This document shows, piece after piece, positions 1,367 to 43,069 of a DNA stretch of 64,000 nucleotides; the first letter of the stretch is position 1; each line of letters opens with the position of its first letter. The notes under the pieces were generated by a model. That model ran no database searches and was not told the DNA's origin. It worked only from the letters and a program-made list of their open reading frames with translations. The stretch is from the NCBI RefSeq assembly GCF_002761295.1, contig NZ_CP017881.1, forward strand, positions 347,213 through 411,212, in the 5' to 3' direction. Both the position numbers and the translations under genes were made by a program. Origin of the DNA: Methanohalophilus portucalensis (GTDB lineage: Archaea > Halobacteriota > Methanosarcinia > Methanosarcinales > Methanosarcinaceae).

Positions 1367-1375
1367 GGATAATCC

Positions 1376-15916: not shown

Positions 15917-15988
15917 GCCTCGGTGGCTTAGGGGTGTAGTGCGTCCTTGGTAAGGACGAGGTCGCGGGTTCGAATCCCGCCCGAGGCT
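15917..15988 (+). tRNA. tRNA-Thr (anticodon GGU)
   Basis: 72 nt; 7-bp acceptor GCCTCGG/CCGAGGC; anticodon stem CGTCC/GGACG with loop TTGGTAA; T-arm GCGGG-TTCGAAT-CCCGC; no encoded CCA. Confidence 0.85.
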
Positions 15989-16034
15989 TTAAACTTGCAG
16001 TACAAAGCCCTCCTGCCTTGAATGGTCAAGGAAG

Positions 16035-17183
16035 GTGGGAAGAATGTCTGTACTCTATGATACGGAAAGAAGGCTCAAGTCTTCAGAGAGACGTATTGAA
16101 AATTCGAAATTTTCTGAACGAGATAAAAACCTCCTTTTTTCTTACGAAGCTGATCTTTTTGTAGACGGGCTTGGTGAATGTCGAGTTCTTAAATATCTGG
16201 ATCAATTGTATCGATTACGGCTCTGGCTAGATACTGATTTTGAGTTGGCCAAAGAGAACGATCTAAAGATACTTGTCGGCTACATACAGAGAAGGGACGT
16301 ATCTGCCTCTACAAAGAGGGATTATAAGATATGTCTTCGAAAGTTTTACCGCTGGCTGTACAATGATGATTCTGCACTAAATTGGATCAAGATCAAAAAC
16401 AAGGTCAATGAATCGAAAATTCCTGAAGAATTGCTGACAGAGGAAGAAATTCTCAGACTCATCGAAGTGGCTGATCATCCTAGGGACAAGGCAATCATCG
16501 CTACTCTCTATGATACTGGTGGAAGGATAGGCGAAATCAGCACACTTCAGATAAAACACATCAATTTTGACGAATATGGGGCACAGCTTGTTCTGAATGG
16601 AAAAACGGGTATGCGAAGAGTAAGGGTTGTATTTTGTGTACCATACCTATCATCCTGGCTTGATATTCATCCAGATCGAGAAAATCCTGATTCTTATGTG
16701 TGGATTGGTGTAGGGTCTATGGGAAAAGGAAAACCCTTACGGTATGCTGCTTTCCGTGCGTTGCTAGGACGATTGAAAAAAAAGCAGGGATTAAAAAGCG
16801 AATCTATAATCACCTTTTCAGGCACAGCCGATGTACTGAACTAGCGCAGCATCTTAGCGAGTTTCATCTGGAAGTCATATGGGTTTGGTGTCTGGTTCCG
16901 ATATGTCCAGTGTTTATGTCCATCTTATCTGGAAGGAGGAAATGCGTTATTATCTGTGGTATTCTATCTATCTAGAAGAAAAAAAGTATCTACAGGATGT
17001 ATTTCTGATACATTACAAATTAGTCGATATACGTTACGCAAAATATTGATTGAATTGAAAGAGAGGCAATGGATAAAAGAAACACGACCAATAAATAAGA
17101 GAAAAAATCAGTCTTTCTGCCAACTTCTAGTTTCAAATGATGTTATCGATGAGTACTATGATAATCAAAGGCAAGAGAAATAG
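16035..17183 (+). pseudogene. tyrosine recombinase/phage integrase, disrupted by at least two frameshifts
   Basis: N-terminal SAM-like domain in frame 1; AGIKKRIYNHLFRHSRCTELAQ (HxxR box) in a second frame; putative catalytic Tyr segment in a third; first shift at A8 run 16776-16783 (A9 restores frame). Confidence 0.7.
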
Positions 17184-22491: not shown

Positions 22492-22966
22492 CTTCTTTCC
22501 TACTTTATATTTGCTCAGTTTGTATAATTTCACTTCAAATTTATTTTTTGGAAGCAGACTTTATAGAGTTTAACTATTAATAAAAGTTACTCTTTAAAAA
22601 ATAATTATGATAACTCTATAGTAGCCCTTTCAACTAGTAAAATATTGTTTTAACAAGGAAAAGTTCCCACTGTGTGATTTGGGCTAAATCAAGCACAAAG
22701 AGGATGAATGTTTTTCAGGTTGGGAAAGTGGAACTCACATTAAATTTGTGATTTAATGGCATGTCAAACAATTATCTAAATTTTGTCTATACAGCTATAT
22801 CTATAGCTGGCAAATTACGTCTTCCAATCTACAGTGAAAATTATACCAAACGAAAATATACTCAATACCAGTTAATTACATTGTTATCTCAAAGAGTATT
22901 ATACGAATAAGGACTATAGATATGTTGCTGAATTTATTGATTTAATGCATTGAATTCAATTCAAGA

Positions 22967-25789: not shown

Positions 25790-26284
25790 TCACGTAATTA
25801 GAATATAGAGTATTATAAAACCAATAAAAACTGCAATCCATTTGGAAAAGTTGTTTCCATCAACATTCACATCTCCAACATTGATTACATTTGATCTCTG
25901 AATAAAGCTATCATTAACTTCATGATTCCCTGTATTCGATTTGTTGGTGTTTCTTGATTCTTCTTTCAAATTTCCAGAAACCCTATTAACCGGATCATTG
26001 TCTGTTTTTGACTTAGATTCACTGGAAGTAACTTTTCCAGCACTTTTAATATAAGCTTTGAAATTCAAGTGAGGGTCATATGAGCCTCTATGCCATTTGG
26101 AACATTTGGTGCAGTAGTAATAGTTTGCATTTGATGCATTTGTTTCCTTTTCATCAAAGTAACTGATATGTCTTCTGGAAAGTGAATCGGGATCTGCGGT
26201 TAATCTGTGCCAAGTATCGCATTCAGAACAATAATAGTAATCCCCTTTCTGACCAACTTGTTTTGTTTGATTCATGTATATCAC
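25790..26284 (-). CDS. Cys-motif repeat protein with C-terminal TM segment
   Basis: duplicated YYYCxxCxxWHR motif; stop of the upstream gene overlaps the start (ATGA). Confidence 0.4.
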   Translation of the reverse strand: MIYMNQTKQVGQKGDYYYCSECDTWHRLTADPDSLSRRHISYFDEKETNASNANYYYCTKCSKWHRGSYDPHLNFKAYIKSAGKVTSSESKSKTDNDPVNRVSGNLKEESRNTNKSNTGNHEVNDSFIQRSNVINVGDVNVDGNNFSKWIAVFIGFIILYILIT

Positions 26285-28045
26285 ACAAACATTTCAAATA
26301 AACTTATATGAGTATTTTTAGTGACTCTTCTTTCCTTTTCAACTTGCCTAGTTTTTGGTACTTCTCTATACTTAGTAACAGGCACTTCCCTAGTTTTTTC
26401 AACAGTATCGTATGCTGTTTCAGTTGTTGAATATTCCATGGTTGCTTCTATACTAACTTTCATAGTTTGCGAAAGATCAACTTTCCGAAAATGGAACACA
26501 TAGTAATCGGATTTGTCAGGAACAAAACTAAAATAAGAACTATCAACATTTTTCTTCAGTACATATACCTTCATAGAAGAGTCAAATTCGTATCCATTAT
26601 TAACGAATGAATTATACGTTTGTAAGTCCATGACATCAAAATTACAATTGTTACCTGAAAGTTCACTTATATGTCCTGATATTTTTACTCCTTTTTTACC
26701 ATCAAGATCAATATATCTCTTCCACGATTGACCACCGTAATCCATACTTACTTCGTCAGTATTCGGTGATACTATTGTTTTCTCTCTAGTAACATCCTCT
26801 GTAACCGGTACCTCTTCATAATATGTTTCAGTTTCCGTGGTTTCATAAGGTTCATCAACATAATATGTTTCTGTAGTTATGTATGGTTCATAAGTGGTAT
26901 AACTGTGTGGAATTACAGGCAAAAAGGAACCAAGTATTAAAAAGAGAACTATAATAGATGCATATACATATTTGTTTGATCTTTTTTCAGGTTTTGGATA
27001 TGTATTACTTTCAATATTCTTTTGTGATAGTTGCTCTACTGCATTCTTTTGAGTTTCCGTGAGCTTGGATTCCTTCTCCTTTTTTGAATCAATCGAATCA
27101 ATCGCTTTCAATTCATCAGAATTTGAATCGTTATCTGTAACTTTGTCATCCTGTTTCGTTGAATCGAAATTGGTACGCTGTACAAGACTATCTCTGACAT
27201 CTATATCCAACCCATCTGCAACATTAAAATTAGATCTTTGAACAACTGAATCTGTAATATTAATTACATTTTCTTTTTTAATAACTCCAATTTCCTGAGC
27301 AGATTGTGTAGTAGAAGCAAGATGTTGGAGATCTGATATGATTTCATTCAAAAATCCATTTAGTCCATGTTCTTCATCTGAAACTGCTTTGAACATTACT
27401 TGGGTAAGTCCATCTTTTTCTCTGACAAAAGCAGTTAAAAGATAATCAATTTGTTCCCCAACAGATTCAGCTGCAAAATAGACAATGATGCCATCTCTTA
27501 TGGCATATTCATCCACTTTATAAAGGCTGTTTTTACATGTTTGAGTTATATATGAGATGATTTTTTCCGGACTGAGCCCTTTGAAATTAATGCCCTTGTT
27601 TAAAGATTGCCCGATGCTTGCCCTTTCCAGAAAATCATTACGTTTCATTGGCTTTTCTTTCAAAAATGGGCAAACACAATCAATTTCTTTGGGCTTAATC
27701 TTCTCGGCATGTGATTCCCATTTTGAGTCTTTGTAAAGTACCGTAGCACCTATTTTTTCCTTATGGATGCAATTGGATGGTTTCAAGATGAATTTTGCAG
27801 TACGCTCTACACCGGGGGGGGATATTTCCCAGTTTACTAATTTTTTCCCCATCTAAGTTGAAAAGTGATTCTGAGTAATCCAATACAGCTTCTACATCGG
27901 AAACAGTTGAATCAGTGGAATTAGTAACTCTAATTCCAAATTTAATCCTATTATCGGGTAGTATCTGATAGCCACGTTTTATGTTCAGGTTTCCCATCCA
28001 TTGTCCCCATTCATTATGATAAAATTTGTAAATTAATAAATACAT
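26281..28045 (-). pseudogene. single-pass TM protein of the island paralog family (copy C), frameshifted at a C8/G8 run
   Basis: ORFs 27761-28045 and 26281-27852 are homologous to consecutive parts of the 32776 and 35843 proteins; frames join if the G8 run 27814-27821 is G7. Confidence 0.55.
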
Positions 28046-28102
28046 AGCAAATATATTAATTTATTTGTAATAAACATAATTGTTGAAACTTATAAAAAGC
28101 AA

Positions 28103-29278
28103 TCACATATTCTTTGATTTTACATATTTAGGTGATTCAAGACCAACATCAACGATAATTCCTTGATTGAGCATTTTTTTTACCAATTCATTTGCTCCTT
28201 GATGATTGAGGCCAAATTTCATCTCAATATCATTTAATGTGAAATATTCCGCTTCTTCAATGAACTCATTCATTGATTGATTGAGAGTTTGTCTTTCGGT
28301 ATCATGTGAATGCCAGAACTTCAAATGGTTTGCAGATTCTGATGTATCATTAAATATCAAAGTATCATTTTTCAATTCATAGAGGAATAGAGACATCCTT
28401 TGGTGGATGAAATTTCTTGCAAATACTTTGACACCATCATTCCATTCGTTTGCAATAAGACAGAGGTTTTTGTGTTGTTTTTTACCAACAGCATTGGCCT
28501 GAGACTGTACATGTTCAACAAAATCCTGCATTTGTTGTATGGGATAGCAGTACGTTTCAATTGTCAGGATTTTTCTGAACAGATTATCTTTAATTACACC
28601 ACTTACACTTCTTTTAGTGACATCAATCTTCCAGTTTTTATCTGCAATATAGTCCCCATTAGGTGATATTTCAGGCTGGAATTTTGAATATTTTTCTTCA
28701 AGCAAGTTTATGTAATTGTAAAGTTTGGACAGATATTCAGTATCATCTAATTCATCTTTTTCAATCGATATGCCATGAGTTATTCCACAAGATTTTTTAG
28801 CAGAATCTAATTCATCTGCATGGCTATCCAGCGAATTCAACTGTTGTTTTCTTTTTGTGTCTTCATATTCCGAATTAAGTTCATCTGTAAGCATTATTCG
28901 GTTTCTGAAGCTTGTTGCCAGAGAATCTATTTTTCTTTCAAGTGTGAGTGTATCTACAGTTTCAGCTGTATCCAGAGAAGTCTGCAGAAATTCAAGTAAG
29001 CCAGTTGAACTTTTCATGAAACACTCTTCTGCTTCATAAAAGTCGTCCAGGTTGCCTTGTCTGCGATTAAAAGAACTTATGTTTTTATCCTGAAAATCAG
29101 CTATCAAATCGCTTGTTTTATTCCTTACCTGGCGAAGTTCTGCAGTTGTGATGGAATCCTGCTTTCGATATGCTTTGTGAATTAAGTGTTCAATATACTC
29201 ATGCGATTTGTGCAAATTGTCAATCACTAATTTGTGATTTTGCTGCTGCAGCTCTGCCGGAGGTGTCAAATCTGCCAT
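28103..29278 (-). CDS. hypothetical protein, operonic with the Vps4-like ATPase
   Basis: 391-aa ORF, coiled-coil rich, 44 nt downstream of the Vps4-like gene. Confidence 0.45.
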   Translation of the reverse strand: MADLTPPAELQQQNHKLVIDNLHKSHEYIEHLIHKAYRKQDSITTAELRQVRNKTSDLIADFQDKNISSFNRRQGNLDDFYEAEECFMKSSTGLLEFLQTSLDTAETVDTLTLERKIDSLATSFRNRIMLTDELNSEYEDTKRKQQLNSLDSHADELDSAKKSCGITHGISIEKDELDDTEYLSKLYNYINLLEEKYSKFQPEISPNGDYIADKNWKIDVTKRSVSGVIKDNLFRKILTIETYCYPIQQMQDFVEHVQSQANAVGKKQHKNLCLIANEWNDGVKVFARNFIHQRMSLFLYELKNDTLIFNDTSESANHLKFWHSHDTERQTLNQSMNEFIEEAEYFTLNDIEMKFGLNHQGANELVKKMLNQGIIVDVGLESPKYVKSKNM

Positions 29279-29321
29279 ATCGGTAAATCCCCACTTTTCA
29301 TTATTTATTCAAAATTAAGTT

Positions 29322-30488
29322 TCATACAGATTGATTTCTATAACTCATAATATCACTGAAAGTACCGGCTTCCCCATTTTTATCAATCTGCTTTTGTGCC
29401 TCAATATACCAGTTGTGTATCGAAGGCTTGCGTTTATTGAATATTTCCATGAAATCTCCGGTTTCAATTTTACGTGTTCCTTTACCCTGCAATGCTTCGC
29501 TCAGAGGAATGTCTGCTGTTTCTTTGCAAATTGCCGTTATATCTGCACCTGAATATGCATCCGTCATTTGCGCTAAGTAATGTAAATCGATATCTTCTGC
29601 AACAGGTCGGTTCTTCAAATTGAGATCCAGGATAGCCTTACGTGCCTGATGATCAGGTTCAGGTATGAATAACAATTTACTGAAACGGCCGGGTCTTCGA
29701 AGAGCAGGATCGATAGCCCATGGTTCATTGGTCGCTGCCAGGACAAGCAGGTTTTCCTGTGTTGCATCGATACCATCCATCAGAGTAAGCAACTCATTGA
29801 CAAGCCTTTTTGCATGTTCTTCGGCTTGACTACGTCTACCAGCTATAGAATCGATTTCATCAAAAAATATGATTGCTTTTTCCGATTCTCTTGCGGTAGC
29901 AAATATTTGTTTAATATTTTTCTCCGATGAACCTACCCATTTGCTCACAATACTGCTTGTTTTGACTGTAAAAAAATCCGCATCACACTCTTTTGCTGCG
30001 GCTTTTGCCATCATCGTCTTGCCACACCCAGGAGGACCATAAAGTAGGATTCCCTCGCCTGCTTTTTGACCATACATCTGGTACAGTTCTTTGTGAGTGA
30101 AAGGATAAATGATGGCTTTTCTTATGTCTTCCTTGACATCTTCCAAACCACCGATATCTTCAAATCCAATATTTGAAGGTTCCTTCATGAGCAGGTCTGA
30201 TTTGGCCAAACCAGACTCTTCAATATTTCCTTCACCTGTATCGGCACTACCCGCAGTATTTGCACTAACAGTCCTGAAGGATTGGGCTTTTGCAAGCAGG
30301 TGCTCTGCAAGGTCACGCTGTGTATTTCTCTCTGTTTTATCAGCAGCAACTTTGGATGCTTCGTTATATAGCCCGGCTGCTTTAAGATAGAGTTCTCTGG
30401 CCCTTTTATGATTGTCTGCATTTTCTAGTTTTTTTGCAGCTCTTGCATACCCTCGAGCCTGTGCAGCAAATGAGTTTGAAGATGTCAG
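29322..30488 (-). CDS. Vps4/CdvC-like AAA+ ATPase with N-terminal MIT domain
   Basis: Walker A GPPGCGKT; meiotic-clade motif SIVSKWVGSSEKNIKQIF; in-frame upstream helical MIT-like segment; no ATG/GTG/TTG between the stop at 30489-30491 and the TTG at 30209, so the start is uncertain. Confidence 0.65.
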   Translation of the reverse strand: MTSSNSFAAQARGYARAAKKLENADNHKRARELYLKAAGLYNEASKVAADKTERNTQRDLAEHLLAKAQSFRTVSANTAGSADTGEGNIEESGLAKSDLLMKEPSNIGFEDIGGLEDVKEDIRKAIIYPFTHKELYQMYGQKAGEGILLYGPPGCGKTMMAKAAAKECDADFFTVKTSSIVSKWVGSSEKNIKQIFATARESEKAIIFFDEIDSIAGRRSQAEEHAKRLVNELLTLMDGIDATQENLLVLAATNEPWAIDPALRRPGRFSKLLFIPEPDHQARKAILDLNLKNRPVAEDIDLHYLAQMTDAYSGADITAICKETADIPLSEALQGKGTRKIETGDFMEIFNKRKPSIHNWYIEAQKQIDKNGEAGTFSDIMSYRNQSV

Positions 30489-30518
30489 TTACCACCCCTC
30501 CAATCAATTATTACTGAT

Positions 30519-31082
30519 TCATTCTTTCATTTCAGATTCAAGTTTCTTGGAGAAACTGTCTTCTTCCGTATCTTCACTGCTGAGTTCTGCCAGAAGTTCT
30601 GACCGAAGGGAATCCTGTGTCTCAGAAAGTTCAGTACCGCCGGCCATTGCTGCATCCATTGAGGAGGTCATCATATTTGTGGCTGTATTGACTTTATCCA
30701 TAGATGTACGGATATTTGTAACCGCAGTTTCCAATTTTGTGTTATCAAACCCAAGCTGTTTCTGCCATTGGCCAAGGTTTTGCCCAATTTCAACGACTTC
30801 ATTGAGACCTGATTCCATTTCTATTACATCAGACATTGATTGGGCCATTTCCACCATGCTGCTTATGGTACTAACCTGCCCTTCGATCATAGAGAACCTG
30901 CGTGAAGCAACTCTATATTCCCGGTCGTTTCCATTTGCAAGGGCTTTTTTAGCTTCATTACGAGCCTGGTCTCTCTTTCTGATCAATTCTTTTTCCCGTG
31001 TTGTCAATCTCTGTTCAGACATTGATAACTTTGTTTTCAAATCATCTGATGACACTTTCTTGAATGGATTTTTGATTTCCAT
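30519..31082 (-). CDS. ESCRT-III/Snf7-like (CdvB-like) coiled-coil protein
   Basis: 187-aa all-helical protein, basic N-half, acidic C-terminus (EEDSFSKKLESEMKE); immediately upstream of the MIT-AAA ATPase. Confidence 0.5.
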   Translation of the reverse strand: MEIKNPFKKVSSDDLKTKLSMSEQRLTTREKELIRKRDQARNEAKKALANGNDREYRVASRRFSMIEGQVSTISSMVEMAQSMSDVIEMESGLNEVVEIGQNLGQWQKQLGFDNTKLETAVTNIRTSMDKVNTATNMMTSSMDAAMAGGTELSETQDSLRSELLAELSSEDTEEDSFSKKLESEMKE

Positions 31083-31285
31083 TATAATTTCTCCTCCATA
31101 TTGTTCTGTTTAGCAAATCTTATACACAGTTTCAGAGCTTCTGATGTATTGATCGCTATCCCCAACTCAACCAAATTTTCCAAATATTTCTTGCTGTCTT
31201 CTGAGACTCTCGCACTTACTGGATATGACTTTCGCATTAGATATTCACCGATACTAAAGTTCGAAACATTCACCATTGTATACAA
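31082..31285 (-). CDS. ribbon-helix-helix (CopG-like) putative regulator
   Basis: 67-aa ORF; PVSARVSED beta-strand plus two helices pattern. Confidence 0.35.
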   Translation of the reverse strand: MYTMVNVSNFSIGEYLMRKSYPVSARVSEDSKKYLENLVELGIAINTSEALKLCIRFAKQNNMEEKL

Positions 31286-31358
31286 TGGAAAACGTTATAT
31301 ATAAGACTTATTCAATATACTGCTAAAGTACTGGATACAATTTAGGGGTTAATTTAAA

Positions 31359-32642
31359 ATGTCATTCAAGTGGAAAGCAACATCAGATGAGATTGCAAGG
31401 GTTATTTCAAAGAAAAACATTGGTGGTATATTTAGTAAATCAATAACAATTTCTCCCAATCAAAAGGCGGCAATAATTAAAAATGGTGTTGTGGAAGAAA
31501 GCGTTAGTAGTGGCAAATTACGAGTTGGAGGGTTACTTAAAGGAGAAATCAACAAAGATGTTGATATTGCATTGATGGACATATCTCCCAAAGATCTGCA
31601 GTGGGCTAGTAGTGAGATGTGGACTTCTGATAATCAGAAAATTAGCTGTAAAGGCCTTTTGAGATTCAAAATACACGATGAACAGAAATTCTTCCAGATG
31701 CTTTTTGCCTATACAACACCCGGAAATAATGGGGAGAGAAAGTTATCTGTACAGGATATATACAATCGTCTTGAAAGTGAAACTATCACACGTGTTCTTC
31801 AGCCCGAAATCAGGAACATTGGCATAGAAAACATTTACGGAAATCGGGAGATGCAGCTTCGTTTGGAAAATGAACTGGAGATGCAGCTAAAATCTACCTT
31901 CGCAATGTGGGGCCTTGAACTTATACGTTATTCAGTGGAATGGGACCTTGGAACCTATGAACAGGTGATGCAGGCCTCAAATGAGTTGCATACAAATGAG
32001 GAACTCAAAGAACTTGAAACATTATCTAAGGAAGGAGATATTGAACGCCAATCACGTGAACAGATTGCACAAACAAGGGCAAATTTTGCTCCAGAATCTG
32101 TAATAAGGGATCATGAAAGGAATGAAGGTATAAAACAGGTAAAACATTCGGCTGCTATATCCCAGATAGAGAGTGAATCAGATGCTTTGGAAGCAAAACA
32201 GGCAATTGATACATTCAGAGCCTGGAAAGAAACTAAAAAAGATTTGAAAAGAGCAGATCTTGAAATCGAAGAGGACATGGAAGACCGCAGGCATTACCGT
32301 GATAAAGATTATCTGAACAATATAATGGATAAAGGTGGTGCGGATACTGCCAAGATAATCGCTCAGGGCAGAGAGTTTGGTTCTATGTCAGCTGAACAGA
32401 TTGAAGCCCTTGCAAAAATACAGGAAGCTGAGGCTAATAAAAACGATGATCGAATCAAGTTCATGATGGATGTTGAGGACCGGGAACGTGCAGATGCCTA
32501 CAGGCATAAGGAACTTGATGCAGCAATGATGGGTGCTGCCCAGAATAATGTTTCACCGGGTGCTCGTAAATGTCCAAACTGCGGAAGTGTAATTGCTGCA
32601 GAGGCCAATTTCTGTGGTCAATGTGGGTCTAAGATGAAATGA
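31359..32642 (+). CDS. SPFH/band-7 domain protein with C-terminal zinc ribbon
   Basis: SPFH-like core (LQPEIRNIGIE...ELEMQL..GLELIRYSVEWD); long coiled coil; C-terminal CPNCG...CGQCG. Confidence 0.55.
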   Translation: MSFKWKATSDEIARVISKKNIGGIFSKSITISPNQKAAIIKNGVVEESVSSGKLRVGGLLKGEINKDVDIALMDISPKDLQWASSEMWTSDNQKISCKGLLRFKIHDEQKFFQMLFAYTTPGNNGERKLSVQDIYNRLESETITRVLQPEIRNIGIENIYGNREMQLRLENELEMQLKSTFAMWGLELIRYSVEWDLGTYEQVMQASNELHTNEELKELETLSKEGDIERQSREQIAQTRANFAPESVIRDHERNEGIKQVKHSAAISQIESESDALEAKQAIDTFRAWKETKKDLKRADLEIEEDMEDRRHYRDKDYLNNIMDKGGADTAKIIAQGREFGSMSAEQIEALAKIQEAEANKNDDRIKFMMDVEDRERADAYRHKELDAAMMGAAQNNVSPGARKCPNCGSVIAAEANFCGQCGSKMK

Positions 32643-32775
32643 ATTTTTATATTATGTCTTTTTTTCAGGAGTAAAATAAAAATATAGAAGACACATCTAT
32701 GTATAAATTATATGGTAACAAAATATATTGTCTCCAGTTGGGTTTTATATGAAATGGGATGAATTTATTCAACAT

Positions 32776-35343
32776 ATGAGTAGAGTAATGTTTATCTTAC
32801 TCTTTTTTTTCGTATTGACAGGCTTTTTCAGTTCAACTGCATCTGCTGAAAGCGTTACATTTTCAGACATGGGTATATCTTCTCAGTTTACTTCAGGAGA
32901 TGAGGGTACCACACCAACCGGGACATTTCATATAGATTCAGTAAATCAGCAGGCCGAAATCACTGTAGATACTTATCGTCCTTCTTATGCTTCAATAGTA
33001 ACAATTTATGTAAATGACGCACCAGTGAAATCTGCATCTGTTAGTGATGAAGAAACAGTTTCGGTTACATTATCATCTGATAATTTGAAAACTGGTGAAA
33101 ATACCATATTTATTAAAGCAGTTGCAGATTTCGGAAATTTTGACAGTGGAAATGATATGGTTATCTACGGAACTTCAAAAATAACCATATCTGAGGATAA
33201 TACAAATGCATATGAATCTACTGAAAGCGTTAGTTTTTCAGATATGGGTATATCTTCCCAATTTACTTCAGGAGACGAAGGTACTACACCAACAGGTACA
33301 TTTCATATTGATTCAGTAAATCAGCAGGCCGAAATCACTGTAGACACTTATCGTCCTTCTTATGCTTCAATAGTAACAATTTATGTAAATGACGCACCAG
33401 TGAAATCTGCATCTGTTAGTGATGAAGAAACAGTTTCGGTTACATTATCATCTGATAATTTGAAAACTGGTGAAAATACCATATTTATTAAAGCAGTTGC
33501 AGATTTCGGAAATTTTGACAGTGGAAATAATATGGTTATCTACGGAACTTCAAAAATAACCATATCTGAAGAAGTTATTCAAGAAAACGTCGATTCCACT
33601 TCTCAATCGGATACAGAGGATTCAGGTGTAGATTCTACCTACACAAATTCTAACTCAAATAAGGATATAACAAATGTTGAATCCTCAAGTTCTGATACAG
33701 AAGAAGGGACTGTCGATGATACATCTCAAACTACAAATTCTGAAGAAGAAAGTAAAGATTCGACTACTGGTAGTTCTGAAGTCGAAGATGATACCACTGT
33801 TCATAAATCAGAAAATTCAAATACATATGAAGAAAGTAATTCAAACTATATTTATGAAACAGAAAATAAAAATAATGAAAATGAATCAAATGATGGTTTC
33901 CCTATTTCTGGGATATTATTCTTAATGTTAATAATCGGTGGGGTTCTTGTTGCTAAAAAGAACAATAATTCTTCTCAAAAAAATAATGATCAAAGTCCCC
34001 CAATGAAAGATTCTTTTAATTCCGTAAGTAAATCAGATTCATTTTATGCAGGACAACAAGCTACAGCTGCAACAAAAGAAAAAGGAATTATTATAAAATC
34101 GGCGTATAATTACGAAGGCGCAAAAATCATTTATAAACTAAGTATCAAAAATTCTACAACGGATGCAATTAGTGATATAAAAATTTCTCTTTTTGTACCA
34201 GATGTATTTCTTATAAATGAGACACACAAATTAATTTCTTTACTAGAACCAAACGATAAAAAAAGTGCCACATTTGAAATAAGACCGACTGGTGAATGTG
34301 GAGATTGCAACATTTCGGGTAATATCAATTATTACGACCATAGTCAGAAAAAACGTCAATATATGGATATCGAAACAAAATCTCTCAGTATTGTATGCCC
34401 TATGTTGAGAAATAAGGATATAACTAAAACAGAATGGAGAACTGTGATTAATTACTTGGTAAGTACAGAAGAAACAACAAAAGAAATCGATATACCGGCT
34501 GAGACACTCTTAGACATGGTATCGCGGATTGTTGAAGATATGAATATGTTCATGCTTGAACCAGAAATAAGTTCCACTCCAAATATGTTCAATGGTGTTG
34601 CAAGATTCTATGCTGAAGGAGTGAAAGACCTGAAATATGCTGCACAGATAGAGGTCGTGGGTGGTTCTAAGAAATCCAAACTCATCTTGAAAGCCTGGGC
34701 TGAAAAAGAGGAAGCATTAACAGGTTTCTATCATGGTATTTTAGATGAACTTGAAAAGCGTACTCAAATAAAAGGAAGTATCAACGAAAACATCATTCAG
34801 AACTATTACCATTATGGAGATAAAGTTGATACAAAAATAAATGATTCACTTATACAAAGATCATTTAATAAAGATGTTCATGGTTCAATATCAGATGATA
34901 AAGATGAATATCAAACGGCTTCACCAATTGAAGATTATAAGATAAAATCTGAGTCATATGATGAATTCAATTACGATGGAGTTTACACATACCTTGTAAA
35001 TATTGCCCAAAAAGCCTGTGATCATAGGTCTAAAATCCTTAATAATCTGGACGTTCCCTCTTATCGAAAATCTCTCTACGAAAAAGGTATTATTGTTACC
35101 TATGGAGATGTTCTGAAACAATTTGGGAAAATTCCTAACAATCCTTCACATCAACAACAATTGTATCCAATACTTGATGAAATCAATAAAAACAATAAAC
35201 CGATATTGCTGTCAGCACTTGTAGTAAACAAAGAGGAATACCTTCCTAGTGAACAATTTTTCAAAAAATGGACAAACAATTCGTGGGAATCGGAATTAGA
35301 AAAAATCTGGGATTCTTACTGCGATGAAAATGGTGGCTTTTAA
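32776..35343 (+). CDS. single-pass TM protein of the island paralog family (copy B) with tandem-repeat extracellular N-domain
   Basis: signal peptide; two 125-aa tandem repeats; S/T/D/E-rich linker; TM helix; cytoplasmic module shared with copies A and C (EIRPTGECGDC...IVCP; NDSLIQRS). Confidence 0.6.
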   Translation: MSRVMFILLFFFVLTGFFSSTASAESVTFSDMGISSQFTSGDEGTTPTGTFHIDSVNQQAEITVDTYRPSYASIVTIYVNDAPVKSASVSDEETVSVTLSSDNLKTGENTIFIKAVADFGNFDSGNDMVIYGTSKITISEDNTNAYESTESVSFSDMGISSQFTSGDEGTTPTGTFHIDSVNQQAEITVDTYRPSYASIVTIYVNDAPVKSASVSDEETVSVTLSSDNLKTGENTIFIKAVADFGNFDSGNNMVIYGTSKITISEEVIQENVDSTSQSDTEDSGVDSTYTNSNSNKDITNVESSSSDTEEGTVDDTSQTTNSEEESKDSTTGSSEVEDDTTVHKSENSNTYEESNSNYIYETENKNNENESNDGFPISGILFLMLIIGGVLVAKKNNNSSQKNNDQSPPMKDSFNSVSKSDSFYAGQQATAATKEKGIIIKSAYNYEGAKIIYKLSIKNSTTDAISDIKISLFVPDVFLINETHKLISLLEPNDKKSATFEIRPTGECGDCNISGNINYYDHSQKKRQYMDIETKSLSIVCPMLRNKDITKTEWRTVINYLVSTEETTKEIDIPAETLLDMVSRIVEDMNMFMLEPEISSTPNMFNGVARFYAEGVKDLKYAAQIEVVGGSKKSKLILKAWAEKEEALTGFYHGILDELEKRTQIKGSINENIIQNYYHYGDKVDTKINDSLIQRSFNKDVHGSISDDKDEYQTASPIEDYKIKSESYDEFNYDGVYTYLVNIAQKACDHRSKILNNLDVPSYRKSLYEKGIIVTYGDVLKQFGKIPNNPSHQQQLYPILDEINKNNKPILLSALVVNKEEYLPSEQFFKKWTNNSWESELEKIWDSYCDENGGF
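32848..33597 (+). repeat. 375-bp direct tandem repeat, 2 copies, in frame within the 32776 gene
   Basis: copies start at 32848 and 33223; last ~270 bp nearly identical, first ~100 bp carry ~12 substitutions. Confidence 0.8.
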
Positions 35344-35842
35344 TACACTTTAGATGAAAGTTATAGTTTGATGCGGATATGATGGGAGCTGCACAATTCC
35401 GTAGTAGCCCTGTTTCAAGAATTGTCTCGGTTGCGGCACCAAAGTACCCATTGGAGCACATTTTTGTGGCCATTGCGGGACCAAACTTGACTGAGAATCT
35501 AAAACTGAAGATACGTAAATAGATGATGGGAAATTAAGGAAAATGTTCAATAAATTAGCCGAAAATAATTGCTTTAAAAAAGCAGCAGTTAATCGTAATT
35601 CTCCCTGCTTCATTATCCATTTTTTATTTTTCAATGAAAATATACTATATTAGGTGTAAATTTATTCGTAAAAATTAGACCATATGAAAATTAATTATTT
35701 TTCACTACAGACCAAAAGAAAGCCCATAAATACAATGATTATATTATTTGTTTAAACTGGAATTTATTTTAAATCTGGTCTAAATAACGGCTTAAAAATA
35801 AGATTGCAATATCATCCATTCCATTGTCTAGGAGATATAAGT

Positions 35843-38152
35843 ATGACAAAAGAACAGCAGCCGATTGCAGTGGATGAAGCTTATATAATTCGAGATAATC
35901 AGTTTTGGTATAATGACTGCTCATTTGCTGATTTTGTGAGAGATAAAGCAGCCATTGTTGTAAATATAAGTGGTCTTGGGATACGCACTCTTGAGCATGC
36001 TGAACGAGGAATCGATGGACGTTTAACATCCTCATATAAAATCCCACCTGTTGATCAGAGATGGTGGAAAGCACATCGTGGTGAAGCTGTTCGACTGGAG
36101 TTACTAAGTATTGAAAATGAAGGGGTGAAACCATCCACATTTCCTCTTCATGTTGCCAGAGAAACTGAATTTTACCAAGGTTACATCCGTTTCAAGATGT
36201 CCGTGACCAATAAGAGCTCCAGCCTTATTGCAGACGTAGTTCTTGATTTTACTTTTGATGAAAAACTCTTGAATATTGCCGATTATGGTGAATATCCTGT
36301 GAAGAACGGGAAAATCATATTGGGAAATATCTATGGAGGCAAATCTAAGTCAATTGCCATTCTTTTCGACCCATTGACCTGTACCAAAGCTGCAGATATT
36401 AACTGTCATATTATTTATGCAGACCATGAAGGCAGAATGTCTTCAACCTTCATGAAGCCTAAAGAAATCAGTGTGATCTGCCCCATCATGAAGACTGAAT
36501 CCGATATTAATATCGGAAGACTCAAGGAGTTCATTGCGAATCTTCCAACAAAGGACAGTCGTGTTTACGAAATTAAGAGTGGATTCAACATCGACAAATT
36601 AACTTCTCTTGCTCGGGAAGTCGTGGAAAAGTATGATGTTCGCCATGTTCGTAATCTCCACACACGTGATGGAAAAATCTGTGAGATCTGGTATTATGGA
36701 AACACAAAAGTTACAAAAGATGCAATCGTCATCAAAATCTCTGTTTCCACGGAATATTCTACGATGGAACTGTTTGCTGCCACTAGAAATGCAGAAACAC
36801 TCACTGGTCTACTTGCTGAAATTGGTCGTGATCTGAAAAATGCAGTTGAATCAAAAACAAGTGGTAAAGGCGGGATTATTAATGTCACCATAAAGGATTC
36901 GATTGTTCAACGCAGTAATTTGCTGGATATGTGCGACATTGATGGCACATGTGACGTTAACATTGTCATCGAGGATTCCGTAGTCGAACGCACTAGCATT
37001 GCCACAGTGAATGAAGAAGTAAAGCATCTTCACAGGGAAAAAGAAGAACTTGAGTGGCAAAGAAGAGAGGTTGAGAAGAGAAAAGTTCAGGAAACTGCTC
37101 GTCTGAAAATACCCGAAGAAAAGGAGATCACGATAAAGGATGCAAAAAGAAAGCGCACGCATTCTGCTTATTCATCTCAAAAAGTAAAATCTTCATCCCA
37201 TTCAACACAACTACAAAGCCTGTCTCCCCAAAAAAAGTCAGGCAAAAAAGTGTTGATATCTTTATTGTTCATACTTTTGCTCGGTGGCCTCTGGATGGGG
37301 CTAGGTGGCAGTGAAAATTCAACTACAATAAATTCACAAAATATGGATGATTTGGATGTGGTTTCTTTTACGAACACAGTAGAATCTGATGAAGATTCGA
37401 CTTCTTCCAGTTTGGAAAATGCGGGTAATGAGCATAATACGATTTCATATGATGTTGCGGATTTTAAAACCTACACCAACTCCATAGGCATGGAATTCGT
37501 GCTCATTCCTGCAGGTGAATTTATGATGGGTTCTCCTGAAGATGAAGAGGGACGAGAAAATAATGAAGGCCCAATTCATAAAGTGACCATCGAGAAAGCT
37601 TACTATCTTGGTAAATACGAAATAACTCGAGAACAATGGTTTGAAGTTATGGGTGATACTTCTTCGAATATTAGTAAACCCAATTACCCAATAGTAGATA
37701 TTTCATGGTATGAGGTTCAAAATTTCATTAAAAAATTAAATGAAAAAGAAGAAACAAACAGGTACCGTCTCCCTACAGAGGCAGAATGGGAGTATGCATG
37801 TAGGGCTAATACAAAAACTAAGTACTATTTTGGAGATGATGAAAATAAACTTTCAGGGTATACTGAATTATTGGGAGGAAGATATCAAGTTGGAAGAAAA
37901 AAACCTAATCCATGGGGGTTGTACGATATGCATGGCAATGTTTGGGAGTGGGTACAAGATGATTATCATAAAAATTATGTAAATGCTCCAAATAGTACTA
38001 TTGCTTGGAAAAGTAAAAATAGTAATTTCAAAGTGATACGTGGTGGTGCTAGTGGCCTATTGCCCAACCATTATAGGTCTGCAGTACGTACTGGTGAGAA
38101 AAGCGGCTCAAATTATTGCAATTTAGGATTTCGACTTGTTATGGAGTCGTGA
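35843..38152 (+). CDS. single-pass TM protein of the island paralog family (copy A) with C-terminal extracellular FGE-sulfatase (SUMF1-like) domain
   Basis: GGAG RBS 8 nt upstream of ATG 35843; shared module (CPIMK; IKDSIVQRSNL; IEDSVVERTSI); TM at LISLLFILLLGGLWMGL; FGE motifs RLPTEAEWEYA, HGNVWEW, RGGAS. Confidence 0.65.
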   Translation: MTKEQQPIAVDEAYIIRDNQFWYNDCSFADFVRDKAAIVVNISGLGIRTLEHAERGIDGRLTSSYKIPPVDQRWWKAHRGEAVRLELLSIENEGVKPSTFPLHVARETEFYQGYIRFKMSVTNKSSSLIADVVLDFTFDEKLLNIADYGEYPVKNGKIILGNIYGGKSKSIAILFDPLTCTKAADINCHIIYADHEGRMSSTFMKPKEISVICPIMKTESDINIGRLKEFIANLPTKDSRVYEIKSGFNIDKLTSLAREVVEKYDVRHVRNLHTRDGKICEIWYYGNTKVTKDAIVIKISVSTEYSTMELFAATRNAETLTGLLAEIGRDLKNAVESKTSGKGGIINVTIKDSIVQRSNLLDMCDIDGTCDVNIVIEDSVVERTSIATVNEEVKHLHREKEELEWQRREVEKRKVQETARLKIPEEKEITIKDAKRKRTHSAYSSQKVKSSSHSTQLQSLSPQKKSGKKVLISLLFILLLGGLWMGLGGSENSTTINSQNMDDLDVVSFTNTVESDEDSTSSSLENAGNEHNTISYDVADFKTYTNSIGMEFVLIPAGEFMMGSPEDEEGRENNEGPIHKVTIEKAYYLGKYEITREQWFEVMGDTSSNISKPNYPIVDISWYEVQNFIKKLNEKEETNRYRLPTEAEWEYACRANTKTKYYFGDDENKLSGYTELLGGRYQVGRKKPNPWGLYDMHGNVWEWVQDDYHKNYVNAPNSTIAWKSKNSNFKVIRGGASGLLPNHYRSAVRTGEKSGSNYCNLGFRLVMES

Positions 38153-38642
38153 TTGATATTTATAGTTTTAATTACAGTGGCAACATCAATCATTTTCTGA
38201 AAATAAAAAAATGGTAGATTTATTCAACCAGAGTTAGTTTTAATTATTTCTGGAATCTTGTGAATAAAGTTCTTGATTATATCATCCTATCCTTTGACAC
38301 AAAATTTACTAACAAGTGATTAATTTATAAATAATGGTCAAATGCACCGACGATTAAGCACTTTTATTTGCTTCTTCATTCTGTGAGTCAAAAATTCAGG
38401 GGAGTGTGTAGACAAGATAATTTTCAATAACATCCCTTATCTGCTACTCTAGTATAAATTTACCATAATGAGTGAACAAGAAGGTCATTATTCAAAGCTA
38501 TAATTTCATTTCGTTCATTAAGGATATTTGCATATTCATCTTTGTGGAATTCATCACCATCTTTTTCAAAGAGCATCCCTTCAATTAAGTAGACTTTTTC
38601 GTGTAAAAAACCAAAAATGTTTATAACCCACATCTATATATT

Positions 38643-38891
38643 ATGAAAATGCGCGTTTGTCAAAATTGTGAAAAACACGTGGGTTCAAACGGATTTTGTA
38701 CCGACTGTATGTCATATGATTATGTTAAAAGTGTGTGTAGACCAAAACCAAAGAAGATTTTTAAACCAAAAAATAAACCCAAAAAACCCAAAGAATCAGC
38801 AGAAGCACATTTTAAAAGAACTGAACGTTTAATAGAGGAAGCAGAAATCCTTTTAAGAAAATCTGAGGCACAAAGAAAATCATCAAAATAA
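38643..38891 (+). CDS. small zinc-ribbon protein with Lys/Pro-rich tail
   Basis: CQNC...CTDC followed by KPKKIFKPKNKPKKPK. Confidence 0.3.
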   Translation: MKMRVCQNCEKHVGSNGFCTDCMSYDYVKSVCRPKPKKIFKPKNKPKKPKESAEAHFKRTERLIEEAEILLRKSEAQRKSSK

Positions 38892-39493
38892 CAGAAGACA
38901 ATCTTTGTAACCTTTCTGTTATACATCAATTCCAAAATGGAACGAAATGGTTTACATTTAATCATTTCAATTTCGAATATTATTGTCATCTGCAAACATC
39001 AAAATTTCATATTCCAATTTCATTTTGAAGTAATATAGATATTTTATTGGTATTGATACGCTCTATAGATGATATTTTCTGTTCAAATAAGGAAAATCAA
39101 TTTTGGCTCTAATATTAATAAAAAAGTATAATCCAAAATATTTATCATGTTTGATAAATAGACATCAGCTGATATTATTCAAAAAAGTGATCGACATGGA
39201 AATTGATTTTGGAAATCGAAAACATATTCTTTGCAAATATACATATCTTGAAAACCATCCAGATACAGTATTTGATGAATTGATTTATGCAGATAATTAT
39301 CATTTTCTCCTATGATAAGAAACAACTTTTAACATTTGCACAAATTTAAAAATTGATACATATGAACTCAGTGTCTCTAATCCATCTAACAATAAAAAAT
39401 AGCAGCAGTTGATGAGCTAAAACAATCACTATTACACCAGGTATTAATGGAAAACAAATGGACATGTTGAAAGTATAATCAAGGAGAAAACAA

Positions 39494-41338: not shown

Positions 41339-41631
41339 TGATATGAATGAAACTGGAACCAGAACCTAATATATGGTCCTGCACTGAAAGGAGTAGATAG
41401 GGTTTGTCAAGGCAAGTCGCATGCTTTCTGTATTACAATATCAATTAGGTATAATATTGAAATTGGTAACCATCATGGTGAACCTGTAATTGCAGATTGC
41501 ATGATGGTATTTTGTAACACTAAAATATGGAATTTTAATTGCTGCAGGGATCGATTTTGGTGGAACAAGGAAGACCAAAAACCCCTATCGAATCATATAT
41601 TTGAGACAATAATTTTATATTTCGGGATATA

Positions 41632-42441: not shown

Positions 42442-43042
42442 CTTTGCTCTGATAGAAAAATGCCTTTCTGTTGTAAATCGGCCAATTGATACTACAAATA
42501 AATAGAAATCAACGTATATGATTGATTATGCCTTTCAAGAATGAATAAATTTTTCTTCAAAATGCAGTTTGTCGAATCAGAAAAAGTGATTACTCGCTTT
42601 TCCTCTTCTAAGAACCGTAAGTTAAAGTTTCACTTATCTGAATATTATCTATTGTCATATCACACATATTTAGATCAAGTAATTTTAATTAGATTTTCCA
42701 CATTTCCAACCTCTCCTAACATGAGAATTCAAACTAAAAGGTTTACCAGATTTAACATCCTGCTTCATAGAATGCAAGGTGCCTTAAGAAAAACCATTTT
42801 CTTCCATTCAGAACAAGGCATATCAAGAACATTCTGGCTATAACCCTCTGAAATAGCCCTTTTAACCTCGCAGCAGAATTAATAAAATACTGTGACATGC
42901 ACTTCTCAAAATTCGTGTATATGAATACATTACGTGCAAGACGAAAACCTTTATATTTAAAGACCGCTAATTTACTTATACTAATGAATATTGCTTTGAC
43001 CATCAAAGCAGGTTCGGCTTTTGACTTGTACTGTGCGGGGCA

Positions 43043-43069
43043 ATCTCGCCCGAGGCTTTCTATTTCCAG
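43043..43069 (+). repeat. degenerate copy of tRNA-Thr 3' end (putative attR)
   Basis: aatctcgcccgaggcttt matches tRNA 3' end aatcccgcccgaggcttt at 17/18; preceded by gcgggg. Confidence 0.5.

Follow-up and report, generated by a model that had tools for sequence, protein, structure and literature searches.

The locus at positions 25,790 to 38,152 of the window (the whole 64,000-nt stretch of DNA analyzed here) is very likely the Methanohalophilus portucalensis copy of "Meth_adaptin," an archaeal ESCRT membrane-remodeling system catalogued in 2024 (Makarova et al., 2024, mBio 15:e00335-24, PMC10936438), and a mechanism and an acquisition history are proposed for it below. What is new is that this copy lies in a variable island beside a tRNA gene, and not at the usual chromosomal site. 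The nine open reading frames (ORFs) of a previous, sequence-only reading of this DNA are all present where it placed them, and 8 of the 9 genes are intact:

25790-26284, minus strand: Cys-repeat protein, 164 aa
26281-27852, minus strand: membrane protein, 523-aa ORF (26281..27997 with the upstream frame)
28103-29278, minus strand: coiled-coil/winged-helix protein, 391 aa
29322-30209, minus strand: AAA ATPase, mechanical ORF of 295 aa, with the frame open up to 30488
30519-31082, minus strand: Snf7-like protein, 187 aa
31082-31237, minus strand: RHH-like protein, 51 aa from ATG
31273-31305, minus strand: predicted conserved promoter/operator (TATA-like element plus palindrome)
31359-32642, plus strand: SPFH and zinc ribbon protein, 427 aa
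32728-35343, plus strand: appendage membrane protein, 871 aa
35804-38152, plus strand: appendage membrane protein, 782 aa

The earlier proposal that each gene is translationally coupled to its neighbor holds at two junctions, where neighboring genes share 1 nt (RHH-like and Snf7-like) or 4 nt (523-aa and 164-aa); at the others the genes are separated by 30, 43, and about 105 nt, and there it fails.

The published tables include an ESCRT-III (WP_072360869), a Vps4, and two arCOG15284 adaptin proteins of M. portucalensis, and in the Vps4 tree the protein of strain FDF-1T (WP_085503682.1) has M. zhilinae, Methanococcoides, and Methanolobus as its neighbors (Makarova et al., 2024, PMC10936438). 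The 295-aa AAA ORF of the window is identical to WP_085503682.1, and a M. portucalensis protein matches the Snf7-like one with 100% identity. The gene order also agrees with that of the reference locus, Methanosalsum zhilinae WP_013898571 to WP_013898578 (Makarova et al., 2024, PMC10936438). Both loci carry, on one strand, an appendage protein, a coiled-coil/wHTH protein, Vps4, and ESCRT-III, and, on the divergent strand, an SPFH/coiled-coil/zinc-ribbon protein followed by a protein of the appendage-TM-GOLD type. On the other hand, "Meth_adaptin" has a ProX gene, whereas this copy has no separate ProX gene, and in the nearest relatives a receptor has an OpuAC domain fused to it. The window copy has three appendage proteins and a small zinc-knuckle membrane protein, it sits in a tRNA-Thr variable region, and its ATPase differs from the published Vps4 entry, which is the 295-aa form without MIT (Makarova et al., 2024, PMC10936438). 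Term searches of the main text of that paper gave no mention of the RHH-like gene, the promoter palindrome, or island carriage, none of which is in the M. zhilinae locus table; the same main text, as searched, gave neither a CUG start of the ATPase nor a poly-C frameshift in a receptor gene, and its passages that mention "motif" do not include DSxIQRS (PMC10936438).

This architecture is common to 39 loci in GTDB species genomes, and its usual site, seen in Methanolobus, Methanococcoides, Methanomethylovorans, and M. levihalophilus, is next to rps6e, aIF5B, and ndk. Because the architecture is the published "Meth_adaptin" type, which lists M. portucalensis proteins, the view of this machinery as alien to methanogens is outdated; euryarchaeal ESCRT systems had already been described in 2010 and 2024. 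The sequence-only reading, which considered ESCRT not typical of methanogenic Euryarchaeota, was right about the components and the island setting, but not about this point or about a role in conflict. The neighborhood is routine at a conserved ribosomal-protein-gene site in related methanogens, a distribution which that reading had itself named as refuting it.

The intergenic region between the divergent genes contains a TATA-like element, CTTATATATAA, at 31295-31305, which is followed by GTTTTCCATTGTATAC, and a perfect 16-bp palindrome, CCATTGTATACAATGG, at 31273-31288, 35 nt upstream of the RHH start. The sequence GTTTTCYATTGTATAC occurs exactly once per locus in 42/42 loci, those of Methanoperedenaceae included, and is always upstream of the RHH gene. 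The 51-aa RHH-like protein matches Pfam RHH_1 (E = 0.054) and the AbmR C-terminal region of NCBIfam (E = 4.6e-5), making it AbmR/Mb1296 C-terminal-like, and its orthologs bear PF27540 (Mb1296_C). In related loci, the gene directly upstream of Snf7 encodes a protein with 63-80% identity to it. The RHH-like protein is presumed to be the operon regulator, and would probably repress the operon at the palindrome.

The 187-aa Snf7-like protein, called ESCRT-III in the sequence-only reading, is an ESCRT-III superfamily member, though a divergent one, as judged from the Snf7 profile matches of its relatives and from AF2/Foldseek structure. On the window protein, the Pfam Snf7 match (span 5-157 of 171, E = 0.01) scores 15.9 bits, which is below the family cutoff of 27.3; Snf7 is matched by 16 of 19 family members (best 3.1e-5), and by two remote relatives at up to 9e-7. 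The AF2 model has four long helices, and the protein carries an acidic C-terminal helix. Its best Foldseek matches are ESCRT-IIIB, CdvB, CHMP, and Vipp1, none at E ≤ 0.001, with Asgard ESCRT-IIIB and Sulfolobus CdvB at the top. The family profile found no match by sequence among solved ESCRT-III chains, and neither the protein nor its family members matched PspA_IM30 at E ≤ 0.1.

The adjoining gene encodes a Vps4-like MIT-AAA ATPase of about 388 aa (29322..30488, minus strand) that probably starts at CTG 30486-30488. This codon is directly preceded by a TAA stop and lies 8 nt after a Shine-Dalgarno-like GGAGG; most orthologs have TTG there, and three Methanococcoides species and related Methanohalophilus populations have CTG. 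The frame upstream of the 295-aa ORF encodes a MIT-like three-helix region and contains no ATG, GTG, or TTG. Because of the likely CUG start, the MIT domain is hidden from annotation, and the public record gives 295 aa, missing the domain. The MIT domain proposed earlier is borne out by 18/18 orthologous N-termini (best 1.6e-6) and by the profile, which also matches the calpain-7 MIT domain (E = 0.008). The ATPase matches AAA (E = 1.4e-44) and AAA_lid_3 (E = 4.4e-11), and the CdvC model covers its whole length with 238 bits. Taken by itself, the AAA core scores 265 bits with CDC48, 234 with PAN, and 214 with CdvC; the sequence thus gives no proof of the "meiotic clade" label applied to it before.

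The 391-aa protein has a coiled coil and a C-terminal winged helix, with a weak MarR_2 match at residues 339-375, and members of its family give weak matches to wHTH models, among them EAP30/Vps36 (6e-4). Orthologs (29-47% identity) are found in most related loci, and the gene's syntenic counterpart in M. zhilinae, WP_013898572, bears the description "coiled-coil and C-terminal wHTH" (Makarova et al., 2024, PMC10936438). It is possibly an ESCRT-II-like bridging component. The 427-aa SPFH protein, the counterpart of arCOG15283 (Makarova et al., 2024, PMC10936438), combines Band_7 (E = 4.5e-7), a coiled coil, and a C-terminal zinc ribbon (Zn_ribbon_3, E = 7.6e-7); hydropathy gave no TM helix. 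In every related locus, an ortholog (49-66% identity) is encoded divergently to the operon. The SPFH protein and the receptor-like family noted earlier recur in related loci, as integral partners of the system.

The three membrane proteins have in common a cytoplasmic module with the adaptin/COPI appendage fold. In the protein encoded by 26281..27997 (minus strand), this module is followed by one TM helix (residues 296-314) and a GOLD-like ectodomain. A C8 run (27814-27821), identical in three assemblies, shifts the frame of the 523-aa gene; the true N-terminus is in a 94-aa ORF (27761-28045), and the ortholog in the related population L061 is intact, at 568 aa. The frameshifted receptor aligns over its full length with a protein, P0127 (E = 7e-34), that has Pfam PF01105 (EMP24/GOLD). 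The 871-aa protein contains a signal/TM segment, an ectodomain duplicated in tandem, a TM helix (391-409), the appendage module, a DSxIQRS motif, and a C-terminal domain. Proteins of related loci share 42-70% identity with its module, and an OpuAC/ProX-like ectodomain replaces the duplicated one in the nearest relatives. The parts of the 782-aa protein are an N-terminal domain, a module built of an Ig sandwich and a platform, DSxIQRS in two copies, a coiled coil, a TM helix (483-501), and, on the extracellular side, an FGE-sulfatase-like domain (FGE-sulfatase, E = 7e-46). The tail-anchored 164-aa protein matches Pfam RYYR-CCHC (E = 2e-5) in two stretches (zinc knuckles), and has a DSxIQRS motif at residue 125 and a C-terminal TM helix (146-164). 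DSxIQRS is confined to the appendage and small membrane proteins, and Methanoperedens loci have comparable small ORFs that bear it.

In the proposed mechanism, the single-pass appendage proteins would act as cargo or ligand adaptors with interchangeable ectodomains (FGE-sulfatase-like, GOLD-like, and, in relatives, OpuAC). The appendage modules, the DSxIQRS motif, and the winged-helix protein as an ESCRT-II-like bridge may recruit ESCRT-III filaments to membrane patches organized by the SPFH scaffold. The MIT domain of the ATPase would bind the acidic C-terminal helix of ESCRT-III, and the ATPase would disassemble the polymer, driving constriction away from the cytoplasm and hence vesicle budding or membrane-protein sorting. 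By analogy with eukaryotic and crenarchaeal ESCRT, we infer that the output may be vesicles, sorting, or repair.

Like the crenarchaeal Cdv (CdvA/CdvB/CdvC) and Asgard/eukaryotic ESCRT-III/Vps4 systems, the window locus has an ESCRT-III-fold gene next to a MIT-AAA ATPase gene, and an acidic C-terminal helix on ESCRT-III. Unlike Cdv, it has neither CdvA nor a wH fused to ESCRT-III, and its AAA core is nearer to Cdc48-D2 and PAN by HMM score. A role in cell division is unlikely, because these methanogens divide with FtsZ.

A tentative alternative, which we consider possible but rather unlikely, is that the module serves in membrane stress or repair, in the manner of PspA plus SPFH: receptor ectodomains would sense the osmotic or envelope state, ESCRT-III would seal or stabilize the membrane where it is damaged at SPFH patches, and the ATPase would recycle ESCRT-III. 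PspA/Vipp1 is a homolog of ESCRT-III, and the bacterial SPFH protein YdjI is reported in the literature to localize PspA; in both settings, genetic linkage joins an ESCRT-III superfamily protein to an SPFH protein. The host is a halophile, one receptor in the nearest relatives has a betaine-binding OpuAC/ProX ectodomain, and a ProX gene belongs to the published locus (Makarova et al., 2024, PMC10936438). However, the window protein is of the Snf7 type and not PspA_IM30, the Psp partners PspB, PspC, and PspF are all missing, and adaptin-appendage and GOLD-type domains, here on adaptin-like adaptors, handle cargo in eukaryotes. A further point against this reading is the dedicated MIT-AAA ATPase, which is what ESCRT-III/Vps4 scission systems typically have.

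The island setting of the M. portucalensis copy is defined by three further features:

15917-15988, plus strand: tRNA-Thr (ARAGORN)
16035-16938, plus strand: tyrosine-recombinase pseudogene (Phage_integrase, E = 4.8e-11)
43042-43059, plus strand: 18-nt copy of the tRNA-Thr 3′ end with 1 mismatch (0.01 chance matches expected)

The tRNA-Thr and the pseudogene (15917..16938) are the left edge of a variable region; synteny with other Methanohalophilus genomes stops at 16561 or 16932, and the region has a GC of 0.36, compared with 0.44 in the left flank. This tRNA-Thr site is a hotspot that in other Methanohalophilus genomes carries CRISPR-Cas, or integrases and a methylase. For this genome, the idea of a tRNA-linked island therefore stands, as a low-GC region of varying cargo downstream of tRNA-Thr and a decayed integrase. 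Like other tRNA-linked archaeal integrative islands, the region has a tRNA followed by a tyrosine recombinase, low GC, and variable cargo. In contrast to them, its integrase is a pseudogene (compared with a 388-aa relative, it is frameshifted twice and truncated at the 3′ end), it is a mosaic of several insertions, and its only tRNA-like direct repeat, the copy at 43042..43059, lies within a secondary 5.6-kb cassette missing from a related population. That copy is a candidate remnant attachment site, and its role as a right boundary is uncertain. The locus was probably acquired horizontally as a 12-kb module within this region; the integrase is now decayed, and one receptor gene is inactivated by the homopolymer frameshift.

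These lesions, together with the lack of an ATG, GTG, or TTG start in the MIT-bearing ATPase, could also indicate a decaying, non-functional remnant of an acquired island. This is improbable, as the CTG start position is found beyond this strain, the MIT-coding stretch differs from related populations mainly at third codon positions (0/4/12 substitutions by position, with 11 synonymous and 5 non-synonymous codon changes), most genes are undamaged, and the palindrome of the promoter is perfect.

Least probable, at only a slight chance, is a conflict system of a defense island, in which membrane remodeling blocks viral entry or budding or kills infected cells: GmrSD genes surround the locus with McrBC further on, ectodomains change fast between close relatives, one receptor gene has a homopolymer tract, and a distant appendage-module homolog (P0138) has a TIR_2 domain, but the GmrSD cassette is a separate insertion missing from a related population, and PADLOC models match only the generic AAA domain (IetA at 153 bits, below the CDC48 and CdvC scores). 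The suggestion of a conflict role thus found no positive support; searches of viral contigs, plasmid records, and phage records gave no relatives, and the comparison suggests no enrichment of related loci beside defense genes. In most genera, the locus has a fixed site beside ribosomal-protein genes and a highly conserved promoter.

All nine open reading frames picked out by the sequence-only reading are present at 25790-38152; the finding is real and its outline was read correctly. The minus strand carries an RHH-like gene followed by genes for an ESCRT-III (Snf7-like) protein of 187 aa, a MIT-AAA ATPase, and proteins of 391, 523, and 164 aa, while the plus strand carries genes for an SPFH protein (427 aa) and for proteins of 871 and 782 aa, which with the 523-aa protein form a set of receptor-like membrane proteins bearing an adaptin appendage module. 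The proposed translational coupling of neighbors holds for the RHH-like and ESCRT-III genes (1-nt overlap) and for the 523-aa and 164-aa genes (4-nt overlap), but spacers of 30 to ~105 nt separate the genes elsewhere. The module is not new, as both the system type and the M. portucalensis copy have been in print since 2024. Euryarchaeal ESCRT-III and Vps4 have been on record since 2010, and ESCRT machinery, which had been called atypical of methanogens, is ordinary for Methanosarcinales. Meth_adaptin, one clade of ESCRT systems, is defined by Vps4, ESCRT-III, two adaptin-appendage proteins (one TM-fused to GOLD), an SPFH protein bearing a coiled coil and a zinc ribbon, and ProX (Makarova et al., 2024; PMC10936438). 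Its authors name M. portucalensis proteins as members; for strain FDF-1T the supplementary tables list the ESCRT-III protein (WP_072360869), the Vps4 protein (WP_085503682, number 31 in the Vps4 tree), and the adaptins WP_072360861 and WP_072360873 (arCOG15284) (PMC10936438). An exact-sequence look-up identifies the window ORF 29322-30209 as WP_085503682.1, so that this very locus had been catalogued before. In the M. zhilinae locus table the genes are ordered as in the window, with a coiled-coil protein ending in a wHTH domain at the place of the 391-aa gene (PMC10936438). The island location and a number of small sequence-level details are useful additions that leave this picture unchanged, and the contribution of the window to knowledge of Meth_adaptin systems is modest. 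Term searches of the 2024 main text, together with its M. zhilinae table, returned no mention of the CTG start, the RHH-like gene and its promoter element, the shared motif, the ectodomain turnover, or the strain-level frameshift described below.

According to a Pfam search, the 187-aa protein matches Snf7 (PF03357) over nearly the full model (positions 5-157 of 171), but at E = 0.01 and 15.9 bits it lies below the cutoff of 27.3 when taken alone. The same model is matched by 16 of 19 family members (best 3.1e-5) and by 2 of 23 remote relatives (best 9e-7). The family is small: searching 1.84 billion representatives with its profile gave 79 members at E ≤ 0.001. Searched by sequence against solved structures, neither the protein nor its family profile gave a significant ESCRT-III match. 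An AlphaFold2 (AF2) model (pLDDT 74) predicts four long helices at residues 12-49, 53-110, 115-146, and 152-186, and Foldseek places Asgard ESCRT-IIIB, CdvB, CHMP2A/3, and CHMP1B in ranks 1-7, with probabilities up to 1.0 and a best E-value of 0.024; Vipp1 and Snf7 are also among the best matches, none better than that value. The protein thus has the predicted architecture of an ESCRT-III subunit (all-helical, ~200 aa, a long α1-α2 hairpin with shorter helices after it, and structural likeness to solved ESCRT-III). As a candidate for the C-terminal MIT-interacting motif through which Vps4 disassembles ESCRT-III polymers, it has an acidic, amphipathic C-terminal helix.

The ATPase gene follows the ESCRT-III gene after a gap of 30 nt and encodes a single classical AAA domain with its lid (Pfam AAA, E = 1.4e-44; AAA_lid_3, E = 4.4e-11). 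Its proposed MIT domain is confirmed: the window region matches positions 3-62 of the 66 in the Pfam model at E = 0.024-0.032, all 18 of the 18 orthologous N-termini match it (best 1.6e-6), and the family profile finds the MIT domain of calpain-7 (8uc6, E = 0.008). The placement of the AAA core in the meiotic clade is not borne out by sequence, as the core alone scores higher with CDC48 (265 bits) and PAN (234 bits) than with CdvC (214 bits), and p97 D2 domains are its best solved relatives. The Vps4-type C-terminal helix (Vps4_C) is not among the best 25 of the 36 Pfam families matched. The published Vps4 tree admits this ATPase by a MIT or neighborhood criterion, with Cdc48 as outgroup (PMC10936438). 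The ATPase thus resembles Vps4 in its architecture and setting, whereas an affinity of its AAA core to Vps4 is not demonstrable. The region encoding its N-terminus has the following features:

29322-30209, minus strand: mechanically called ORF of the ATPase; the frame stays open further upstream and encodes the MIT-like region
30486-30488, minus strand: candidate CTG start codon, directly after an in-frame TAA and 8 nt after GGAGG

There is no ATG, GTG, or TTG in the MIT-coding upstream stretch of this frame. Weak start codons are common to the family, with TTG in most orthologs, and CTG occupies the homologous codon in three Methanococcoides species and in the Methanohalophilus populations, behind a Shine-Dalgarno-like GGAGG or GGGGGT (window site 30486-30501, minus strand; related loci L013, L019, L021, L060, and L061). 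Compared with L060, from a population of ~90% identity, the window differs at 16 nucleotides in the 93 codons that precede the annotated start. By codon position these fall 0/4/12, and of the resulting codon changes in the MIT-coding stretch 11 are synonymous and 5 non-synonymous; coding constraint therefore acts on the MIT region. This substitution pattern and the CTG in other lineages rule out a pseudogenized N-terminus, and the agreement of three assemblies rules out sequencing error as the source of the missing start codon or of the frameshift discussed below. Most likely the MIT region is translated from the CUG. Gene callers and RefSeq (WP_085503682.1, 295 aa) omit the MIT domain; the public models of this ATPase (288-295 aa) lack it and are truncated, probably owing to the CUG start.

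Upstream of ESCRT-III in the related loci is a 51-aa RHH-like gene, whose products are 63-80% identical. It is preceded in the window by the following element:

31273-31305, minus strand: TATA box and, after it, the element GTTTTCYATTGTATAC, both preceding the RHH-like gene

This element occurs once per locus in 42 of 42 loci, is invariant in Methanosarcinaceae and Methanoperedenaceae, and in the window forms a perfect 16-bp palindrome, CCATTGTATACAATGG, which as a putative operator provides an experimental handle on the RHH-like protein.

The 427-aa protein has the predicted Band_7 domain (E = 4.5e-7) and a C-terminal zinc ribbon (E ~ 1e-6), with no close solved relative by sequence; like the Meth_adaptin SPFH protein it combines coiled coil and zinc ribbon, and its gene is transcribed away from the operon, an arrangement also seen in M. 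zhilinae. The 391-aa family gives weak winged-helix matches, EAP30/Vps36 among them, and a search of the PDB with its coiled-coil/winged-helix profile gave no significant match. At least two window proteins contain the adaptin appendage region (Ig-like sandwich plus TBP-like platform) typical of Meth_adaptin systems. In the AF2 model of the 782-aa protein, an Ig sandwich and an α/β platform are modeled confidently at residues ~100-340, where pLDDT averaged by block is mostly 86-98 except in a short low-confidence linker. By hydropathy, each of the three paralogs has a single TM helix, and the module is cytoplasmic whether it precedes or follows this helix. Its homologs carry varied other domains, most often FGE-sulfatase, which also forms the C-terminus of the 782-aa protein (Pfam, E = 7e-46); bPH, zinc ribbon, TPR, HEAT, FKBP, NHL, GOLD, and TIR_2 domains are found as well. 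The GOLD-fused appendage protein of Meth_adaptin has its counterpart in the 523-aa protein, for which Pfam made no direct GOLD call; GOLD is assigned by homology to P0127, an appendage-module homolog with a recorded PF01105 match to which it aligns end to end (E = 7e-34). A separate ProX gene, by contrast, is absent from the window. Two further features of the appendage genes are:

27814-27821, minus strand: C8 run at the frameshift of the 523-aa (GOLD-type appendage) gene, the same in three assemblies
32838-33137 and 33213-33512: ectodomain duplication in the 871-aa protein (375-nt period, 95-96% identity, ~125 aa doubled)

The true start of the 523-aa gene is the ATG at 27997, inside a 94-aa ORF, and a C7 run would restore a protein of ~568 aa. 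Since the related locus L061 encodes this protein intact (568 aa), the frameshift is specific to the compared M. portucalensis assemblies; phase variation of the appendage gene is possible. The duplication in the 871-aa protein is recent; populations of ~90% identity encode an ortholog whose ectodomain is OpuAC/ProX-like instead, and the OpuAC domain is there fused to an appendage protein. The 164-aa protein contains two RYYR-CCHC zinc knuckles (Pfam). It shares with all the appendage proteins a cytoplasmic motif, [IV]xDSx[IV]QRSN[IL][GL], at residue 125 of the 164-aa protein, 201 and 221 of the 523-aa protein, 706 of the 871-aa protein, and 365 and 391 of the 782-aa protein. The motif recurs across the related loci L004-L044, often doubled around a C-x5-C pair, and within ten surveyed 20-kb loci it is confined to appendage and small membrane proteins. 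Together with the natural ectodomain swaps, it offers further experimental handles.

Established ESCRT biology and the 2024 analysis, set beside the parts list, folds, topology, conserved linkage, and promoter documented here, suggest how such a module would work. The single-pass appendage proteins would serve as adaptors for cargo or ligands; appendage and winged-helix proteins could then nucleate ESCRT-III filaments on an SPFH-organized membrane, and the MIT-AAA ATPase would remodel these filaments, leading to budding away from the cytoplasm or to membrane-protein sorting. The main rival is a PspA-like function in membrane stress, which the OpuAC link and the SPFH partner favor. A conflict-related role, which the sequence-only reading had raised, finds no positive support: PADLOC returned IetA and TRIP13 matches for the ATPase only, both to its generic AAA domain, and none for the other eight proteins, and relatives were not found in viral contigs, plasmids, or phages, a result that also leaves carriage by a virus or plasmid unsupported. 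The coding constraint on the MIT region and the intact promoter make it unlikely that the locus is simply decaying. Because ESCRT, adaptin appendage, GOLD, and SPFH are linked in one prokaryotic locus, the system type bears on the origin of eukaryotic trafficking, a point already made for this organism among others (Makarova et al., 2024; PMC10936438).

Among the GTDB species genomes, a scan recovered 39 loci, from Methanolobus, Methanococcoides, Methanomethylovorans, uncultured Methanosarcinaceae/Methanosarcinales, Methanoperedenaceae, and one Thermoplasmata MAG. The scan missed M. portucalensis, M. levihalophilus, and M. zhilinae, all of them carriers, and absence from its list was therefore not taken as evidence. 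In Methanolobus, Methanococcoides, Methanomethylovorans, and M. levihalophilus, a tblastn map places the neighborhood at one conserved site, where it adjoins rps6e, aIF5B, and ndk; many of these loci have a PNPOx gene at the opposite end. Routine occurrence of this kind in related methanogens is an outcome that the sequence-only reading had itself named as refuting it. The MAG loci L022, L027, L029, and L038 do not adjoin rps6e. The closest 391-aa orthologs (39-47% identity vs. 29-36% elsewhere) are in L022, L027, L029, L024, and L036, the last two with flanks too short to be placed relative to rps6e. In two Ca. Methanoperedens genome segments (L008 and L044) the locus is rearranged: it encodes several appendage proteins and a protein of 764 aa that matches MIT faintly, it has a second Band_7 gene, and no Vps4-like gene lies within 10 kb of ESCRT-III; in another related locus, L041, the ATPase lies 5 kb downstream. 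A search with the window Snf7-like protein found a 100% identical protein in M. portucalensis and no match in other named Methanohalophilus species.

For the M. portucalensis genome itself, the proposed island location is borne out by a tRNA-Thr gene with an integrase pseudogene, low GC (0.36 for 15989-43059 vs. 0.44 in the left flank), and variable occupancy of the site. Features in and near this region are:

15917-15988: tRNA-Thr; the recombinase gene starts 46 nt on
16035-16938, plus strand: tyrosine recombinase pseudogene with two frameshifts, ~90 C-terminal codons lost relative to the 388-aa gene of the related segment L056
38184-43857: 5.6-kb cassette with 27-nt direct repeats (38184-38210 and 43831-43857), absent from L060 and L062
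39494-41338: GmrSD-type restriction gene, in this cassette
41632-42441: metallophosphoesterase gene, in this cassette
43042-43059: 18-nt copy of the tRNA-Thr end with 1 mismatch (0.01 expected by chance), inside this cassette
46722-46924 and 50621-50823: 203-nt direct repeat (89% identity) bracketing McrBC genes (47200-50387)
17728-22533, minus strand: 1601-aa surface protein with LVIVD and PKD repeats (units ~126-270 nt, 60-82% DNA identity)

The left flank aligns collinearly with other Methanohalophilus genomes, at 94-96% identity, as far as 16561 or 16932. Beyond it, segments L054 and L055, which have a differently truncated recombinase copy, carry type III-like CRISPR-Cas genes (L054 10717-20519; Cas1, Cas2, and RAMP proteins), and L056 carries two integrases and a D12-class DNA methyltransferase (1238-6453). 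This alternative cargo was found by homolog search, as an exact look-up of the left-flank protein gave island-bearing contigs only. Since varied cargo follows the same flank, the tRNA-Thr site is an integration hotspot, which supports the island claim. The related populations L060-L064 (~90% DNA identity) carry the same module, and in them the 782-aa gene abuts a UvrD-like gene; 38220-43830, between the 27-nt repeats, is therefore a separate cassette. A search for exact repeats of the tRNA-Thr end gave none, and the degenerate 18-mer was not accepted as the island boundary, as it sits in this secondary cassette. Further on, insertion of a McrBC cassette is suggested by the 203-nt repeat that brackets it, one copy of which is the 3' end of a UvrD/PD-(D/E)XK helicase-nuclease gene.

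The whole 12-kb module is able to move into a tRNA-linked variable region. The M. zhilinae reference system lies ~5 kb from a XerC/XerD-family integrase gene, with no rps6e in the neighborhood listed in the supplementary table (PMC10936438), and M. portucalensis may therefore not be the only carrier in which the module is displaced. A bolder proposal, which we regard as rather improbable, is that the module is a self-contained, transferable budding cassette whose ectodomains are swapped between close relatives, that [IV]xDSx[IV]QRSN is a sorting signal read by the machinery, and that the M. portucalensis lineage regained the system by way of the island after Methanohalophilus had lost its resident copy. 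If true, the motif would be a prokaryotic analog of the cargo-sorting motifs read by adaptors. As a minor observation, a gene related to that of the 1601-aa surface protein lies near the ESCRT module in L061 as well.
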